64,000 bases of DNA from Candidatus Latescibacterota bacterium (GTDB taxonomy: Bacteria > Latescibacterota > UBA2968): the NCBI GenBank assembly GCA_965222605.1, contig OZ244960.1:2336001-2400000 (forward strand). The letters run 5' to 3'. Of this stretch, positions 34,563-41,855 are shown piece after piece (the first letter of the stretch is position 1; every line of letters begins with the position of its first letter). Below the pieces are notes generated by a model that was not told the origin of the DNA, ran no database searches, and saw only the letters and a program-made list of their open reading frames with translations. A program made the position numbers and the translations under genes.

Positions 34563-34625
34563 TTCAAATCAAGAACGATTCACAAACGGGTCTGGATCGT
34601 ATTTTGAATGATGTTGCGAAATGCA

Positions 34626-35150
34626 CTATAGCACTTGATAGCCATCCATAGCCTGCCACATATAAATTCTTCTGCATTGTGCGCATAAAAAAAGAATATT
34701 ATCGTCATCAAGCGGATCGTAGAGTTTCTCAATCAGCGTTGATTTTCCATACTTTTCATATAAGTCTTTGAGCGTCTCCGGGGGAATCGCGCGCAATGCC
34801 TCTTTAGAAATCTCCGGTTTTATGCCCCACAGAGGTCTCAAATCAAACCCACACCCGCACTGTCTATCGCGCATATCTCCGTCCCGTCTGTGTACGCGCT
34901 CATCGTCAAACCATCTCCAATCGTATAGTCTTTTGCACTTTAAACACAACTCATAATGGGTTGCCGTACCCGGCATCTTCTCGTTTTCTATGAGGCGATT
35001 AATCTCCTCCTGTTCTGGCAACTCTTGCACCTTCTTTGTCCCAACCAAACAGTATCGGCAGCGACGATTTTTCTGGCGCAGATAAAAAATCAGATAGATA
35101 GGACCTACCACAATAATCAGCAGAAAAATAATAGACAATAATGGTTCCAT
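34626..35150 (-). CDS. Membrane-anchored Cys-rich hypothetical protein
   Basis: N-terminal TM; CRYC, CLKC, CGC, CAQC. Confidence 0.6.
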   Translation of the reverse strand: MEPLLSIIFLLIIVVGPIYLIFYLRQKNRRCRYCLVGTKKVQELPEQEEINRLIENEKMPGTATHYELCLKCKRLYDWRWFDDERVHRRDGDMRDRQCGCGFDLRPLWGIKPEISKEALRAIPPETLKDLYEKYGKSTLIEKLYDPLDDDNILFLCAQCRRIYMWQAMDGYQVL

Positions 35151-35334
35151 TGTTACTCCAGTTGTAAACCACTTCATCACTTCAGAGGCGAGGTTTTTTC
35201 AGCAAGCCTCTAACTGGGAATGATAAAAGCCCCGCATCATGTGGGAGCTTTTTTATGCAGGGATTTATCCCGGCATACCTCAAATAACCTCATCGCGCCT
35301 ATCTTCAACCTGCACCACGTCAATCGTATAATGG

Positions 35335-36591
35335 TGGAGTTACCCCGCTTCGGTGGCGTATTTAGGGCTTGTGTTTCAAGCCTGTGATTGATGCAGCTTT
35401 TCATAAGCTATCGGCGCATGGTAGGCGATGGAAGAATGCCTGCGATGCGGGTTATACCACCCTTCAATGTAGGAGAAGAGAGCCAACCGCGCTTCATGCT
35501 TGCGTACGGAAAGATCGGCGATTGATCAACTCACACTCAAGGGTGGCGAAGAAGCTCTCGCAAAGTGCGTTGTCATAGCAGTCGCCAGCAGACCCCATTG
35601 AGGGACGCACGCCAGCCTGGCGACAACGCTTTCCAAATGCTATGGAGGTATATTGCGCCCCCTGGTCAGAATGGTGGATCACGCTTTGTGGGCGACGCTG
35701 CCAAAGGGCCATGTTCAAAGCCTTCAAGACCAACTCGCTCTGCAGGTGTGTCGCCATTGCCCAACCCACGACGCGGCGAGAGAAGGCATCCATGACAACA
35801 CTGAGATACAAGAAGCCAGACCAGGTGGGTACGTAGGTGATGTCAGCCACCCAGAGTTTATTGACCGTTGCAGCAGTGAAGTCTCTCTTTACCAGATCAG
35901 GAGCCTTATCAGCTTTTTGCGCCTTACGCGTCGTTTGCGTGCTCTTTCGGCGACTAACGCCACAAATGTCCATCTCACGCATCAGACGCGCTACGCGCTT
36001 CTTACCTACAAGGATGTCTATATCCATCAGATCTTTCCAGATGCGAGGGGCACCATAGGTGCCATCTGATCGGGTGTGGAAGGCTTTGATATGCGCCTTC
36101 AACTGCGTATCAACCTTTGCTCGTTTGGAGGGTGGACGTGTTCGCCAAGCATAATACCCGCTGAGGGAGACACCCAGCACGCGGCATTGCGTGGCGATTG
36201 GCCAAAGTGCCTGATGCGCTTTCACTAACGCGAAGATTTTCTGGGGATCGCGTCGGTCTCCGCTGCGAATTAGCCCGCTGCTTTTGACAGGATCTCGCGC
36301 TCGATGCGCAACTGCTTATTCTCGCGTCGAAGACGACGCAACTCTTCTCGCTCAGCACTGGTCAGACCGTCTTCTCGAAGTCCCTGGTCTCGATCAGCCT
36401 GACCTATCCAGTTTTGGATCGTCTGAGCGGTTGGCTCAAACTCTCTGGCCAATTCAGAAGGACTGCGACCAGCGCGCACAAGCTCGACGATCTGGCGCTT
36501 CAACTCGGGTGGATAAGGGGGACGTGTTGGTGGCATAGTGGGTCTCCTTTCTAACTACTCATAAGGTACCCACCAAAACGGGTCAAGTCCA
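35335..36591 (-). mobile_element. IS3-family element, inactivated
   Basis: Imperfect terminal IRs TGGAGTTACCCCGCTTCGGTGG and TGGACTTGACCCGTTTTGGTGG; 1257 bp; orfA plus orfB. Confidence 0.9.
35376..36536 (-). pseudogene. IS3 transposase OrfA/OrfB with a premature stop and a frameshift
   Basis: OrfA KAAG*FA where a Trp is typical; OrfB WVADITY, HSDQGAQY, DNALCESFF; 1-nt shift near 35496 before EARLALFSYIEGWYN. Confidence 0.85.
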
Positions 36592-36622
36592 GTTGCTGAT
36601 TTCGGCTGGCAGCAGCAGAGCC

Positions 36623-38020
36623 TCAGTACCGTGTTTCTACGTAAATTGCGGCCCGCCCAGGACAGGGATAGCCGGACTTGTCTTTGTGGGGGTTAAGCCG
36701 GGAGGTCATTTTCTTCCGAGGGAAGTGCTTGCCGCAATAAGCGCATTCATAGATGTAGCGTGGCCCGCTGGTCCGACTTACTCGTCTGCGTCTCGGTCGA
36801 GACGCGGCTGATCGGGTTGCAGTCGGCGGGATGATGGCTGGGCCCTGTGGTCTCAACTCCACTACATAGCGCGGGATGAAACTTTGCCCAGTTGTCTGCG
36901 CGCCCTGGATGCGATCAATGCGATAACTGCGGTGTCCACCATCGGAGGCCCTTATGGCGTGCAGAACGATATTGCCGTCATGGGTGCGCCGCAGAGAATA
37001 AGGCTCAATCCGCCGGACAGATCCCTGGTACTTCAGATCCACGCACAAATGGTTGGCAGCGGCAAAGCGGATGATCTCCAGGAATGACTGTGCGGCACCA
37101 GAGACCGGTAGGCGCAGTGTGCGTTCTCTGAGCACGGTTTCACCAGCGGCCATCTGGTATGTGGCCAGCACAGTGGGCGCCACGCCGGTTTCAAGCCAGG
37201 CAAAGAAATCGGGAAGTGCGCTCCAGAAAGATTCGACGGGCGGCAGAGCCTGAAGCTGGTGAGCCAGCATCGATTGCCAGGAACCTTCAAGATCGTCCCT
37301 GTGTATCTCCAGTTCAACAAGGGCCGGAACAGGAATACTGCGGTGAGCACATTTTTGCTTCAGGACATCGTGCAGGACAGTAGACTGCGGCCGTGCTTCG
37401 TTGTTGCGAAAAAGATTAATGACATCATAGAGATCGCGGGGCCGGGCACGCTCACCCAGGGCGCGGACCTTTTCAGCAAAGGCTTCTTCATAGGCGTAGC
37501 ACCTGATACTGATCCCCTCTGCCGGCACATCGCTGTAGTCGTGAAAGATGACAGGTTCCGCTGGCGGCAGGACAAGAAGCTCATCGAGTGTCAAATCAAG
37601 CTTGATGCGCGGTAGGCCGCCTGAGCGCGGAGCGATCGGTCCTCGGTAGCTGAGTTTGCCCTGGCAGGACACCGTGCCGCGTGGGTTTTCAAAGACCTCG
37701 AATTCCTGCATCTCTTCGGGGATCTCAATGCCGGTTTGCTCATAGATCCATTCGCCGATTTCGCGGAAGACCGCGACCAGGAATTCCTGATCAATGCGAG
37801 AGGGATCGGTAAGTGTAAAATCAAGGTCTTCGGAGAATCGGTAAGTTTCGAAATAGCATTTCTTAAGGCAGGTCCCACCCTTAAAAATCCAGTTTTCTGC
37901 AAGAGCAGCGTGCTGATAGATACCGGCGAGAACCCAGCCGAGCACATAGTCCTTTTCGACAACCTGGGGCAGCAAACCAAAGGTACTCGCGATATCGAGA
38001 ATTTCGCGGCGGTCAATCAT
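36623..38020 (-). CDS. AbiEii-family nucleotidyltransferase toxin fused to a WYL domain and a C-terminal Zn-finger-like motif
   Basis: VEKDY, FKGGTCLKKCY, RFSEDLDF, AEKVRAL, PRDLYD; RRIEPYSL...RSYRIDRI; CAYC...H...C. Confidence 0.85.
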   Translation of the reverse strand: MIDRREILDIASTFGLLPQVVEKDYVLGWVLAGIYQHAALAENWIFKGGTCLKKCYFETYRFSEDLDFTLTDPSRIDQEFLVAVFREIGEWIYEQTGIEIPEEMQEFEVFENPRGTVSCQGKLSYRGPIAPRSGGLPRIKLDLTLDELLVLPPAEPVIFHDYSDVPAEGISIRCYAYEEAFAEKVRALGERARPRDLYDVINLFRNNEARPQSTVLHDVLKQKCAHRSIPVPALVELEIHRDDLEGSWQSMLAHQLQALPPVESFWSALPDFFAWLETGVAPTVLATYQMAAGETVLRERTLRLPVSGAAQSFLEIIRFAAANHLCVDLKYQGSVRRIEPYSLRRTHDGNIVLHAIRASDGGHRSYRIDRIQGAQTTGQSFIPRYVVELRPQGPAIIPPTATRSAASRPRRRRVSRTSGPRYIYECAYCGKHFPRKKMTSRLNPHKDKSGYPCPGRAAIYVETRY

Positions 38021-38823
38021 GCGGACGCCGCCTTCGCCCAGTTCTCAGGCATAAGGAGACGCCATCGGGATATGAGACGGCGGCATGAAAGCCTCGGGTC
38101 AAGTTTGGCATTGCCCTGGGTCAGACGCGCGCGGCACGCCTCAACAAGGGTAGCAGTGCCGGGTCCGCGTTCTGCCAGAAAGCCCAGGCGCTTGAATACG
38201 GCACCGTTACCGAGCCGGTCTGCATAGGCAATCAGTTTGTCATCATCCCTGTCCTTGCGGTCAAAATAGACTGCAAGACAATCGGCAACATGCTGGATAC
38301 CGGCTCCAAGCTCCGGATCGTCGAGCATATCGATGATGGTGCGGTGAACATCCGATACAGCGATCTGGGTTCTTCCGCGCCAGACGGTCTTCGTGCCGAA
38401 AATCATACTCTGCCGGACATGCTTCAGGGTGAAGTGTGCGCCATGGCGGTGCTGGCTTTTAGTACGCACGGCCCGCGCTGTCATCACAACAATATCGCGA
38501 AAGATCTGCTCCGTCAGATCCCAGTGTTCGGCGGCAGTCCGGCCGCCGATGTAGGCCGGCTTAAAAAGCGCAGGCACCAGCACCCAGGGATCATCAAGAA
38601 CCTGCTCGCTGCCAAGGGAATCAAGGCCAACAGGTGCGTACACACCCGGACCGACACGCCGCAGCCAGCCCTGTCCCCTCCAACGGGAGAGAAGCTTGGC
38701 GGCGTCGGAACGACTAACGGAAAGGGCATGTTCAGCATCGGCGATATGAATGATATCACCAGCGGCCCGAATAACGGTGGTCAGCCTGAGGCGTCCCTTA
38801 GGTATGGCGGTCTCTGAGTTCAT
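38017..38823 (-). CDS. AbiEi-family antitoxin / transcriptional regulator
   Basis: GWLRRVGPGVY wHTH, YIGGRTAAEHWDLTEQI, SDVHRTIID, KRLGFL; ATGA overlap with the toxin. Confidence 0.88.
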   Translation of the reverse strand: MNSETAIPKGRLRLTTVIRAAGDIIHIADAEHALSVSRSDAAKLLSRWRGQGWLRRVGPGVYAPVGLDSLGSEQVLDDPWVLVPALFKPAYIGGRTAAEHWDLTEQIFRDIVVMTARAVRTKSQHRHGAHFTLKHVRQSMIFGTKTVWRGRTQIAVSDVHRTIIDMLDDPELGAGIQHVADCLAVYFDRKDRDDDKLIAYADRLGNGAVFKRLGFLAERGPGTATLVEACRARLTQGNAKLDPRLSCRRLISRWRLLMPENWAKAASA

Positions 38824-39031
38824 GGTATGTATAGTCAAATTGCAAAAAATCGCATTTTATGTGAATTTTCGTCTCTACAATACATAATATATGTATAGAC
38901 TGGCTCAATGCCAAGTTCATCCAAAAGTTCTGTCAGAAAAAATTTTCGTATTCCTGAAAAATTAGAGTGACCTTTCAAACAATATATCCCAAAGCCAAAA
39001 GGGAGTCAACGAACCCTGAGTCACAAAGGGC

Positions 39032-39070
39032 AATAAAAAAGCACGCTCCGTTAGAGCGTGCTTTTTATTT
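39032..39070. terminator. Bidirectional intrinsic terminator
   Basis: aataaaaaa-gcacgctc-cgtta-gagcgtgc-tttttattt. Confidence 0.8.
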
Positions 39071-39141
39071 CTTGAGATATCCGGTCTATCTTTATCAATA
39101 TCCTCACTTCCCTCTTCTGGTCTAATCGACTCATACGCCGG

Positions 39142-40125
39142 TTAGACCGTCCTGTCCCTCGCAGCGATCTCCGCCAGGAGCTTGACGGCCGCGTACACGG
39201 CCCTGGTGTTGGGCACGGGGACATCGAGCATCTCTCCAAGCTCGATGACAGTGCCCACAACGGCTTCAAGTTCCATCGGCCTTCCAGCCTCCAGGTCCTG
39301 AAGCATAGAGGTCTTGTGCTCGCCCACGGCGACAGCTCCCGCGATGCGCCGCTCGACCGAGATTGGCACCCTCACGCCAAGGGCGCGGGCCACCGCGTCG
39401 GCCTCCTCCATGACGGAGTGAGCCAGAGCGCGGGCCTCGGGATGCGTGGCGATTTCCACCAGAGTCGCGCGAGTCAGTGCGCTGATGGGATTGAAGGCGA
39501 CATTCCCCAGCAGCTTGACCCACATGTCTCCCCGTATCCGGGACCTGATCGGACAGCGCAGACCTGATTCCTTCAAGGCGTCGGCCAACCTTCTGCACCG
39601 CTCACTGGTCGAGCCTTCCGGCTCGCCGATCGCGAACCTGTTGCCCTCCACATGCTCGATCACCCCTGGCTCAGCGATGGAAGCCGAGGGATAGACGATG
39701 CATCCGACGACACGCTCGGCGGGAATGGCGGAGGAGACGACCTCGTTCGGGTCCAGCCTCTCGATCCGCCTTCCGTCCCAATGGCCGCCGTGACCATGGA
39801 AGTACCACCACGGGATGCCGTTTTGGGTCGATATAACGGCCGTCTCCGGCCCGAGAAGCGGTCCCAGCCTGGGGGCGACCTCTGGAAGGCTGTGAGCCTT
39901 GACCGTGAGAAAGACAAAGTCAACCTCGCCCACCTGATCGTAATCGTCCGTTGCGGTAGGATGGGCCTCGAAGTCGCCTTCCGGACTCCGCACGCGGACG
40001 CCGCGCGACTGCATGGCTTGAAGGTGCGGACCACGCGCGATCAGGAAGACCTCGTGACCGGACACGCTGAGTTTAGCACCCAGGTAAGCCCCAATAGCCC
40101 CGGCACCGACCAATGCGAACCTCAC
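39142..40125 (-). CDS. Ketopantoate reductase-family protein (possible oxalyl-CoA reductase)
   Basis: GAGAIG, QNGIPWWYF, WVKLLGNVAFNP, KTSMLQDLEAGRPME. Confidence 0.85.
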   Translation of the reverse strand: MRFALVGAGAIGAYLGAKLSVSGHEVFLIARGPHLQAMQSRGVRVRSPEGDFEAHPTATDDYDQVGEVDFVFLTVKAHSLPEVAPRLGPLLGPETAVISTQNGIPWWYFHGHGGHWDGRRIERLDPNEVVSSAIPAERVVGCIVYPSASIAEPGVIEHVEGNRFAIGEPEGSTSERCRRLADALKESGLRCPIRSRIRGDMWVKLLGNVAFNPISALTRATLVEIATHPEARALAHSVMEEADAVARALGVRVPISVERRIAGAVAVGEHKTSMLQDLEAGRPMELEAVVGTVIELGEMLDVPVPNTRAVYAAVKLLAEIAARDRTV

Positions 40126-41645
40126 GTCGAAGGCCCTCCGGTGATGACCTCCGCGACGATCCGGCGCTGCACCTTGCCCGTTGCCGTCCGTGGGATGGTA
40201 TCTACTATGTGAATCCTGCGCGGGATCTTGAAGGAGGCCAGGCTCTGCCGGCAGTGGGCGATCAGCTCCTTCTCCGTCGCCTCGGAGCCGAGAACGATCG
40301 CCGCGGCGGGCTCCTCTCCGTGGGTAGGGTGCAGGACTCCGAACGACACGGCCTCCGATACGGCGGGGTGCGACAGCAGCACCTCGTCAATCTCGACCGG
40401 AGAAATCTTTTCGCCACTGCGGTTGATGAGTTCCTTGATCCGGCCCCGCAGCGTCAGCACCCCGTTCTCGTCAAGCTCGCCCTGGTCTCCGGTCCTGAAC
40501 CAGGTGCCGACGAACGAAGAAGCGTTCGCCTCGGGGTTGGACTCGTATCCCCGGATCACGTTGGGGCCACTGATCACCACCTCGCCAACCGTACCCGGCG
40601 TCTGAAACTCGCCCGCTTCGTCCATGATCCCGATCTTCACGCCGGTCCCCTGCCCGACCGAGCCGGGGATGCGATTGCCAGGAGGCAGGGGGTTCGACGC
40701 CATCTGGTGTGCGGCCTCCGTCATGCCATAGGCTTCAACCACCGGTACGCTGAAGATCGACTCCATCTGCTGCATTGTAGCCGGGGCGAGAGCCGCGCTG
40801 CACGAGCGGATAAAGCGCAGTCTATCCGCATTCCGGGACGCACGCCCACTCCGGGCCCTGGACAGCAGCGCCCGGAACATCGTCGGCACCGCGGAGAACC
40901 ACGTGACCTCGTACTCCTCGACGAGCGGCCAGAACCCCAGCGGGTTGAAGCGCGGCGGCACGACCACGGTCCCGCCCGAGTGGAGAGTCGAGAGCGTCGA
41001 TGCCATCAGCCCATGCACATGAAACAGCGGCATGATACAGAGCGATACGTCCCTGTCGGACAGGTCGTAGGTCTCGACGATGTTCTCGACGGATACGGTG
41101 AGGTTCCGGTGCGCCAGCGGCACGCGCTTGGGGCGGCTGGTCGTCCCGCTGGTGTGCAGCACGAGCGCCACGTCGTCAGGCTCTGGCAGAGCGGTTTCGC
41201 GACCCTCCGCTGCGGCTCCGGACCCCGTCAGACTGACGCGGCCCGATTCGTCGAGCGCGGCCCGGATGTCCATCACCGAGGCTGGGGCCGCGCTGCGGGC
41301 CTCCTCGCCTCCGTCGTCCGAGGTGATGAGCGCCGTGGCCTTGGTGTCGTCCATGTAGAACTCGAACTCTGCGGCCTTATAGGCGGGGTTCAACGGAGCT
41401 GCCGTGCCAGCCGCCGCGACCGCCAGAAATGTCACAATCGCTTCTATGCCGTTGGGCAGGACGATGGCTACCCTGTCTCCACGGTCTATGCCCCTGGCGC
41501 GGAGCTGCGCCGCGAGCGTCTGCACCTGACGCCGCAGCGAGTCATAATTCACAACAGGCCCACCAGGGGCCACTATAGCCGGGTGCGATGGCGCACCCGA
41601 TTCGAGCAGGTCAAGCAGTGTTTCTGGAGGGGTTTTGCCGGACAT
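40122..41645 (-). CDS. Acyl-CoA synthetase, oxalate-CoA ligase-like
   Basis: LHTSGTTSRPKRVPL, PLFHVHGL, RFIRSCS, EAYGMTEAAHQMASNPLPP, WFRTGDQG. Confidence 0.88.
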   Translation of the reverse strand: MSGKTPPETLLDLLESGAPSHPAIVAPGGPVVNYDSLRRQVQTLAAQLRARGIDRGDRVAIVLPNGIEAIVTFLAVAAAGTAAPLNPAYKAAEFEFYMDDTKATALITSDDGGEEARSAAPASVMDIRAALDESGRVSLTGSGAAAEGRETALPEPDDVALVLHTSGTTSRPKRVPLAHRNLTVSVENIVETYDLSDRDVSLCIMPLFHVHGLMASTLSTLHSGGTVVVPPRFNPLGFWPLVEEYEVTWFSAVPTMFRALLSRARSGRASRNADRLRFIRSCSAALAPATMQQMESIFSVPVVEAYGMTEAAHQMASNPLPPGNRIPGSVGQGTGVKIGIMDEAGEFQTPGTVGEVVISGPNVIRGYESNPEANASSFVGTWFRTGDQGELDENGVLTLRGRIKELINRSGEKISPVEIDEVLLSHPAVSEAVSFGVLHPTHGEEPAAAIVLGSEATEKELIAHCRQSLASFKIPRRIHIVDTIPRTATGKVQRRIVAEVITGGPST

Positions 41646-41855
41646 TCAGTCTCTCCTCTGTAGAGCGTTCGGGCGGACCTGGTGCGTGGGACGCACCAGT
41701 TAGGTTTGTGTTCTATAAAGAATATATTAGAGAAAAACAAAAATCAAGATCGATATGAACAGCCTTGTTCCCACGATGCAATAGACAGTTGCCAGAACCG
41801 AATTCACCCACTATTTTACCAGAGAACTCATGACACAAAAACAGCGGAGGACATA

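Follow-up and report, generated by a model that had tools for sequence, protein, structure and literature searches.

An AbiE-family toxin with a WYL domain and a putative zinc module in a Latescibacterota genome: a widespread architecture and a possible role for its tail

The locus described here raises the question of why a toxin of the AbiE family should carry a long C-terminal tail behind its nucleotidyltransferase core. It lies in a 64,000-nucleotide (nt) stretch of contig OZ244960.1 from a Candidatus Latescibacterota bacterium (GenBank assembly GCA_965222605.1, contig positions 2,336,001 to 2,400,000), hereafter the window, to which all coordinates refer. On the basis of its sequence the locus is a two-gene toxin-antitoxin/abortive-infection module of the AbiE family (AbiEi/AbiEii, COG5340/DUF1814), in which the toxin core is followed by a WYL domain, a basic linker and a small Cys/His module. 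This architecture is real, very widespread and catalogued since 2014, and is not new as a design. Our tentative proposal for the tail, to which we give somewhat less than an even chance, is that it serves as a gate on the toxin and binds single-stranded nucleic acid. The genes and the parts of the toxin, with lengths in amino acids (aa), are:

38017..38823, minus strand, abiEi antitoxin gene (268 aa from the ATG at 38823; Pfam and PADLOC match)
36623..38020, minus strand, abiEii-WYL-Zn toxin gene (465 aa plus stop)
37181..38020, minus strand, nucleotidyltransferase core of the toxin (DUF1814/AbiEii/MenT fold), residues 1–280
36857..37144, minus strand, WYL domain with its leading helix, residues ~293–388 (helix 308–322, then five strands)
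36761..36856, minus strand, basic linker predicted to be disordered, residues 389–420 (8 K/R, no D/E)
36626..36760, minus strand, putative CCHC zinc module, residues 421–465 (three beta strands, no helix)

The interval is taken up by the two overlapping minus-strand open reading frames (ORFs), 38017..38823 and 36623..38020, with the stop codon of abiEi and the ATG of the toxin gene overlapping in the sequence ATGA. An in-frame TTG at 38838 is an alternative start for abiEi and would give a product of 273 aa. AbiEi has its winged-helix part at the N-terminus and its toxin-neutralising part at the C-terminus. Pfam AbiEi_4 matched residues 19–69 (E 9.2e-9), AbiEi_1 was found under its cut-off at residues 92–223 (E 0.0067), and the PADLOC model AbiEi PDLC02271 matched with an E of 9e-129. 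For the toxin, the PADLOC model AbiEii PDLC02317 (396 positions) aligned with residues 1–397 at 660 bits, so the model used for defence finding already includes the WYL part. The PADLOC check suggested in a first-pass annotation of this DNA, made from the sequence alone, was therefore positive for both proteins. Neither protein was assigned in an NCBIfam scan, where the sole match was PP0621_fam (E 0.029, 14.6 bits against a cut-off of 45).

The domain order read in that annotation, AbiEii followed by WYL, a basic linker and a Cys/His tail, is borne out by Pfam, by the structural model and by the composition of the protein. Pfam AbiEii (PF08843) matched residues 30–270 of the toxin (E 1.4e-39), and the core contains the motifs G48-G49, R61-F-S63-E-D65-L-D67, E183-K184 and R195-D196-L-Y-D199. 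Among 70 aligned homologs G48, G49, D196 and D199 are invariant, and R61, S63, D65, D67, E183, K184 and R195 are each at least 90% conserved. A full-length AlphaFold2 model of the toxin, built with 70 homologs, had a mean predicted local distance difference test score (pLDDT) of 92.7 and a predicted template modelling score (pTM) of 0.82. In this model the core superposed on MenT3/TglT (6j7r) with Z 20.9 and a root-mean-square deviation (rmsd) of 3.3 over 257 aligned residues, and on MenT4 (6y56) with Z 20.7; the Foldseek E for MenT4 was 1.3e-9, and the PDB fold matches include the D82A mutant of the toxin MenT3. A PDB sequence search with the toxin alignment profile matched nucleotidyltransferases alone. 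MenT3, MenT4 and MenT1 of the Mycobacterium tuberculosis MenAT systems share the R-x-S-x-D loop with the window toxin, and the first two are its best core fold matches, but they are only 13–19% identical to it and have neither a WYL domain nor a zinc module. The MenTs are described as tRNA acceptor-stem nucleotidyltransferases under antitoxin-induced auto-phosphorylation (PMC11375011).

The WYL domain is genuine. Pfam WYL (PF13280) matched residues 314–375 (E 6.6e-5, 23.3 bits against a cut-off of 21.8), and a scan limited to the C-terminal 188 aa scored 25.6 bits. A second AlphaFold2 model, of residues 278–465 (pLDDT 90.6), was compared with 48,161 PDB representatives, and its nine best matches were WYL proteins only (Z 8.7–11.1); the fold search with the full-length model likewise returned WYL proteins for this part. 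The best of them was PafBC (6sj9_B, Z 11.1, rmsd 2.5 over 86 residues, and up to Z 11.3 with the full-length model), and the others include CapW bound to single-stranded DNA (ssDNA) (9c5g_B, Z 10.1–10.4, rmsd 1.7 over 78 residues), DriD (Z 9.6–9.8), BrxR (Z 9.4–9.6) and a second CapW (Z 8.7). These superpositions rest on an Sm/SH3-like five-stranded barrel behind a helix, as in solved WYL domains. Next in the list were WYL1 (6oaw, Z 7.1–7.3) and then Hfq/Sm RNA binders (Z ~6). The first-pass annotation had staked its reading on a WYL match by hidden Markov model (HMM) or structure, and both were obtained. When the C-terminal 188 aa were searched by sequence against the PDB, only human C2H2 fingers came up, with E of at least 0.25, and no WYL protein. 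The sequence motifs quoted earlier were all located: SEDLD at S63–D67, RRIEPYSL at 336–343 and RSYRIDRI at 364–371.

The closest solved relatives of the domain are thus ssDNA sensors, in keeping with the earlier suggestion of a nucleic-acid sensor fold. In DriD and CapW ssDNA is bound as an allosteric signal, with 3–4 nt on the WYL face (DriD and CapW papers), and ssDNA is likewise reported as an allosteric signal for PafBC. By motif inspection only, Y331, S334, R336/R337, R364, Y366 and R367 of the toxin resemble the DriD contacts Y168, S172, R178, K202, R204 and W206. The barrel and leading helix superpose on DriD, PafBC, CapW and BrxR with Z 9.4–11.3, but the output of those proteins is transcription, whereas in the window toxin it is an enzyme on the same polypeptide, which has no helix-turn-helix (HTH) domain and no WCX domain. 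Membership in the wHTH-WYL-WCX family of transcription regulators was considered and rejected on this ground, the toxin having at most the sensor half.

Behind the WYL domain the linker includes an R-P-R-R-R-R run (residues 408–413) and is the sole weak part of the full-length model, with block means of pLDDT of 53–63 over residues 391–420 and values below 50 at 406–416. The module that follows has a pLDDT of 94–97 and strands at 421–426, 432–435 and 457–464. Its motif is C426-x2-C429-x15-H445-x7-C453, and in the model the CxxC sits at the turn of the hairpin formed by residues 421–435. H432, a candidate fifth ligand, is not conserved. Of the 120 best hits clustered at 90% identity, 96 bear the tail, and 95 of these keep the four ligands, as do 38 of 42 tail-bearing representatives clustered at 50%; the motif persists down to ~38% identity. 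This retention argues that the motif is not due to chance. The Zn-finger tail claimed earlier therefore stands as a conserved Cys/His motif; its spacing does not, as the interval had been given as x13, two short of the x15 found. Pfam matches to the module were sub-threshold only (zf-BED 16.0 bits against a cut-off of 20.6, zf-C2H2 14.5 against 25.2). A classical C2H2 finger was rejected because zf-C2H2 is under threshold, the ligands are CCHC with H-x7-C and the structure has strands only. As modelled, the module is zinc-ribbon-like, with four conserved putative metal ligands on a small beta structure.

Fold searches with both models barely probe residues 421–465, and the tail was also sought elsewhere. 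Among shorter proteins there were eight matches, each a piece of WYL plus tail of 179–225 aa, one of them on the contig of a related locus with a frameshifted toxin (L021). None of 386 longer candidates contained the tail, which is weak evidence, and in the ESM Atlas the best scores were 0.77–0.80, too low to count as a lead. When the full model is aligned to JHP933, the alignments reach toxin residues 456–459, an indirect hint that, in the modelled structure, the tail packs on the core.

The same architecture is found on a large scale. In a word-indexed protein search, 7811 of 8000 scored candidates had E ≤0.001; the NCBI name 'WYL domain-containing protein' is attached to one of the best 120. 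An exhaustive search of 50%-identity representatives gave 5011 matches at E ≤0.001 and 544 at E ≤1e-30. Architecture classes called with three HMMs cut from the toxin alignment were:

120 best 90%-cluster hits: core+WYL+Zn 96, core+WYL 24, core only 0, other 0
67 complete-core proteins, of 150 representatives listed: core+WYL+Zn 14, core+WYL 28, core only 24, core+Zn 1

In contigs from one genome per species at least 581 matches were confirmed, of 600 listed, and the best 80 of these, referred to here as the related loci (L numbers), span Latescibacterota, Acidobacteriota, Alpha-, Beta-, Gamma- and Deltaproteobacteria, Planctomycetota, Cyanobacteriota, Bacteroidota and others. The toxin is full length in a single frame at 55 of the 80. 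A further 16 have a partial match in one piece; several of these stop at about residue 390–410 and so lack the zinc module, and in some the contig ends within the gene. Full-length copies are also present on plasmids of Rhizobium sullae, two other Rhizobium strains and Ca. Thiodictyon syntrophicum, where they are annotated merely as AbiEii/AbiGii toxin. On a tree of 68 cores the presence of the WYL domain changes at least 15 times, as does that of the zinc module, and both close relatives and the characterised AbiEii/MenT toxins have no tail. It follows that the tail is dispensable for catalysis.

The combination was first recorded by Makarova, Anantharaman, Grishin, Koonin and Aravind in 2014 (PMC4012209), who found WYL combined with an AbiGII-like nucleotidyltransferase (DUF1814). 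Their Supplementary file 6 contains the class 'AbiGII-like-nucleotidyltransferase+WYL+C2H2' with five proteins, including ones of 486, 476 and 407 aa, and labels one member zf-C2H2. They also proposed, in silico, that WYL senses a nucleotide or nucleic-acid ligand and regulates the Abi system. The sensor-effector idea put forward in the first-pass annotation, both the architecture and the sensing of a ligand, was thus already in print. The order of DUF1814, WYL and zinc finger and the two length classes are the same as here, but the 2014 class is a list entry, without structure, antitoxin context or experiment. The present analysis adds confirmation of the fold, the positions of the ligands, the scale (thousands of proteins), repeated gain or loss, the link to AbiEi and the link to S63 as a candidate phospho-acceptor.

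The antitoxin remains with the toxin. An AbiEi gene is directly upstream at 77 of the 80 related loci, and the three without an AbiEi call are one where the toxin starts 63 bases from a contig end (L019) and two that are broken (L062 and L068). AbiEi is 262–274 aa long in 69 of 70 extracted ORFs, and its length stays close to 268 aa with tailed and tail-less toxins alike. The earlier description of a 'one-component' sensor-effector does not agree with this. The exception in length is at L015:4200-6296 in an Acidobacteriaceae metagenome-assembled genome (MAG), where the AbiEi frame runs into the toxin as a single ORF of 698 aa, reflecting either a genuine fusion of antitoxin and toxin or a misassembly.

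The bicistronic operon, the COG5340-type winged-helix antitoxin, the DUF1814 toxin motifs and a Ser/Thr before the catalytic Asp (T65 there, S63 here) are shared with AbiE of Streptococcus agalactiae and Lactococcus lactis. In those species, however, AbiEii is ~280–300 aa long and has no C-terminal domains, in contrast to the WYL-Zn tail of the window toxin; PDLC02317 is the only PADLOC subfamily model that covers the WYL part. A 2026 preprint (10.64898/2026.01.19.700257) reports that AbiEi of S. agalactiae binds its toxin AbiEii, which is thereby induced to auto-phosphorylate at T65; it moves AbiE from Type IV to Type VII, and it found no protection by S. agalactiae AbiE against 32 coliphages. 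In PMC11375011 the MenT3 loop holds R76, S78 and K79, and R61, S63 and D65 of the window toxin align with MenT3 R76, S78 and D80. S63 also matches T65 of AbiEii in lying two residues ahead of the first catalytic Asp. Given auto-phosphorylation at T65 and the conserved S63, the 'Type IV' label used in the first-pass annotation, superseded for AbiE in that source, is by analogy probably out of date for the window system too.

Two further features lie upstream of abiEi:

38846..38869, minus strand, inverted repeat resembling an operator (arms of 9 and 8 nt around a 7-nt spacer), downstream of the -10 box and upstream of the abiEi start
38886..38914, minus strand, promoter-like site (TTGGCA, 17-nt spacer, TATATT; 10 of 12 consensus matches)

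The core of the inverted repeat is common to 11 related upstream regions. Autoregulation by AbiEi and MenA has reportedly been described, and by analogy the repeat is a probable AbiEi auto-repression site. A promoter consensus scan gave two sites against 1.6 expected, which is weak by itself, and the TATATT -10 region, upstream of the inverted repeat, is conserved among related upstream regions. In the same region (38826-38898) the 9-nt word TATGTATAG (plus strand) occurs twice exactly, 64 nt apart, together with an inverted copy, and the copies flank the -10 box and the abiEi start. A perfect 13-bp inverted repeat bordered by A- and T-runs, similar in appearance to a bidirectional terminator, is found at 39036-39066, between an upstream ketopantoate-reductase-like gene and the abiEi promoter region.

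From these elements a scheme can be drawn in which the tRNA target, phosphorylation of S63, nucleic-acid binding and gating are what we infer. By analogy with MenT/AbiEii, the toxin core would add nucleotides to tRNA 3' ends and so halt translation. AbiEi would probably repress the operon at the conserved inverted repeat and probably hold the toxin off through induced auto-phosphorylation of S63, following the logic of a Type VII system. The WYL barrel, the basic linker and the CCHC module would together bind single-stranded nucleic acid and form a built-in gate. In the resting state the tail would restrain the acidic catalytic core, and ssDNA or single-stranded RNA (ssRNA) from phage replication or DNA damage would engage the tail, so that the toxin is released or stimulated.

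This sensor reading draws first on the nearest WYL structures, which are those of ssDNA-sensing regulators. It draws also on the dispensability of the tail and on two positions adjoining the S63 loop, T59, kept in 57 of 57 long forms against 3 of 13 short forms, and E58, kept in 89% of long forms against 31% of short. The layout of charge (net -18 in the core, +15 over residues 389–465), the hint from the JHP933 alignments and the mobile/defence context of related loci are further points. Among 14 diverse related loci, seven have defence or mobile-element marks, as read from their gene neighbourhoods: DruA with IS66; IS21; AcaB; an integrase with restriction-modification; SIR2, Piwi and IS3; conjugation genes; and TIR with an integrase.

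A number of observations weigh against it. No WCX domain is present in the toxin, in which Pfam detected AbiEii and WYL only, and in DriD and CapW the WCX domain supplies the other half of the ssDNA pocket as well as the dimer interface. The two arginines flanking the WYL motif of CapW/BrxR (RWHVR; R164 and R168 in CapW) correspond to N350 and H354 in the toxin. In the PIF1 helicase and in WYL1 acting with Cas13d, the WYL domain binds single strands and raises catalysis rather than sensing, according to the discussion in the DriD paper. Retention of AbiEi means that a second switch is not needed. The median net charge of the core (-3, -5 and -10.5, the first for tail-less proteins, n=24, and the last for those with the full tail, n=14) follows a trend for which phylogenetically independent pairs gave no significance (median p 0.5); the idea that core and tail compensate each other's charge was accordingly set aside, its direction being consistent and its significance not reached. 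The toxin is frameshifted at nine of the 80 related loci, and some of the 'short' forms may be truncations or frameshifts. At L056:4887-5870 the toxin ends at about residue 290 and is overlapped by a convergent 483-aa gene, and this 'short form' is a truncation through rearrangement and not a native short toxin. Finally, as the first-pass annotation had supposed, no paper characterising an AbiEii-WYL-zinc fusion was found among open papers and bioRxiv, where the word WYL is likewise absent from the primary papers on AbiE and MenT found there. The nine split toxins (two or three frames; L006, L021, L055, L061, L064, L065, L068, L070 and L079) include several in MAG records consisting of a single contig named 'chromosome: 1', and they are either pseudogenes or the result of indel errors.

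Activation by ssDNA, as proposed at first, goes further than the observations do, and recruitment of a substrate fits about equally well. Here the tail would be an arm that holds the target tRNA, by its 3' end or body, or another RNA or ssDNA, and sets affinity or the choice of target, with AbiEi as the sole control. We consider this a close rival, only slightly less likely than the gate. The accessory single-strand binding by WYL in PIF1 and with Cas13d is a precedent, and like the window toxin both couple a WYL domain to a nucleic-acid enzyme, although the enzymes are different, there is no toxin-antitoxin context and there is no zinc module. An unusually acidic core with a strongly basic tail, the more acidic core medians with the full tail, the Sm/Hfq RNA binders ranking after the WYL proteins, the weak and non-significant likeness of the tail to C2H2 nucleic-acid fingers (E 0.25), the AbiEi gene at 77 of 80 loci, and the missing WCX half-pocket together with the replaced CapW arginines all point the same way. 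On the other side, the characterised MenT/AbiEii toxins work, and many close relatives persist, without such an arm, the charge trend is not significant and the most similar WYL structures belong to sensors rather than to proteins that bind a substrate.

An improbable alternative is that the tail serves assembly or tethering, through oligomerisation of the toxin, contact with AbiEi or DNA binding, for example as a co-repressor at the operator. WYL regulators are dimers (DriD and CapW papers), the promoter region has a conserved inverted repeat, and AbiEi and toxin form one frame at L015; yet DriD and CapW dimerise through the WCX domain that the window toxin does not have, and the length and conservation of AbiEi are unaffected by the presence of the tail. 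That the tail is a neutral leftover under loss, with no role in the window copy, would fit its frequent loss on the core tree and the frameshifts at nine of 80 loci, but is very improbable given its pLDDT of 94–97, the retention of its zinc ligands by 95 of the 96 close homologs that have a tail and by 38 of the 42 distant ones, and the 55 loci in many phyla that keep the full length in one frame.

The gated toxin remains our tentative preference. Its more specific form, in which ssDNA or ssRNA pulls the basic tail off the acidic core or blocks the AbiEi-induced phosphorylation of S63 and so leads to abortive infection, is possible but rather unlikely as it stands. If true, it would be the first case of a WYL domain signalling to an enzyme in cis, and would provide a defined molecular trigger for a toxin of the AbiE/MenT family.

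The copy in the window is chromosomal, and the genes around it have housekeeping functions (M23 peptidase, LarC, ketopantoate-reductase-like, acyl-CoA ligase and GH95), so a defence-island context in the window was rejected. The pair occupies the corresponding position, flanked by larC and a GH95 gene, in a related Latescibacterota locus (L003) with ~90–92% nucleotide identity to the window locus. L003 is without window positions 34567-36612 (a 184-aa CxxC-rich ORF and an insertion sequence (IS) of the IS3 family) and without 38890-41838 (the ketopantoate-reductase-like gene and an AMP-dependent ligase, GC content 0.61–0.66). With these two flanking segments absent from L003, the AbiE site looks like an insertion hot spot. 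The IS is placed as follows:

35400-36595, minus strand, IS3-family element (orfA 36270-36536, orfB 35494-36225)

It ends at ~36591–36595, about 30 bp past the toxin stop, and leaves the toxin intact. It was rejected as the origin of the tail on account of where it ends and because homologs at 93% identity carry the same tail. A 99% copy is found at G000:C1:3223-4414 in the same genome, with fragments elsewhere. Its OrfB is only 243 aa long, ends within the rve_3 match and may be truncated. The genome also contains a second, unrelated AbiE-type pair (L002:839-2502, G000:C1 ~5274131-5275794), consisting of a DUF6088/AbiEi_4 antitoxin of 207 aa and a 347-aa AbiEii without WYL.

For the window itself the result is mainly a correct annotation and one further copy of a catalogued AbiE variant. 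Its value lies in a well-defined, widespread test case for the triggering of AbiE/MenT toxins, and one that is practical to test, since full-length copies occur on plasmids of cultured Rhizobium. In this large natural subfamily the toxin itself carries a domain of the ssDNA-reading type, and this gives a handle on how AbiE/MenT toxins are activated during infection.

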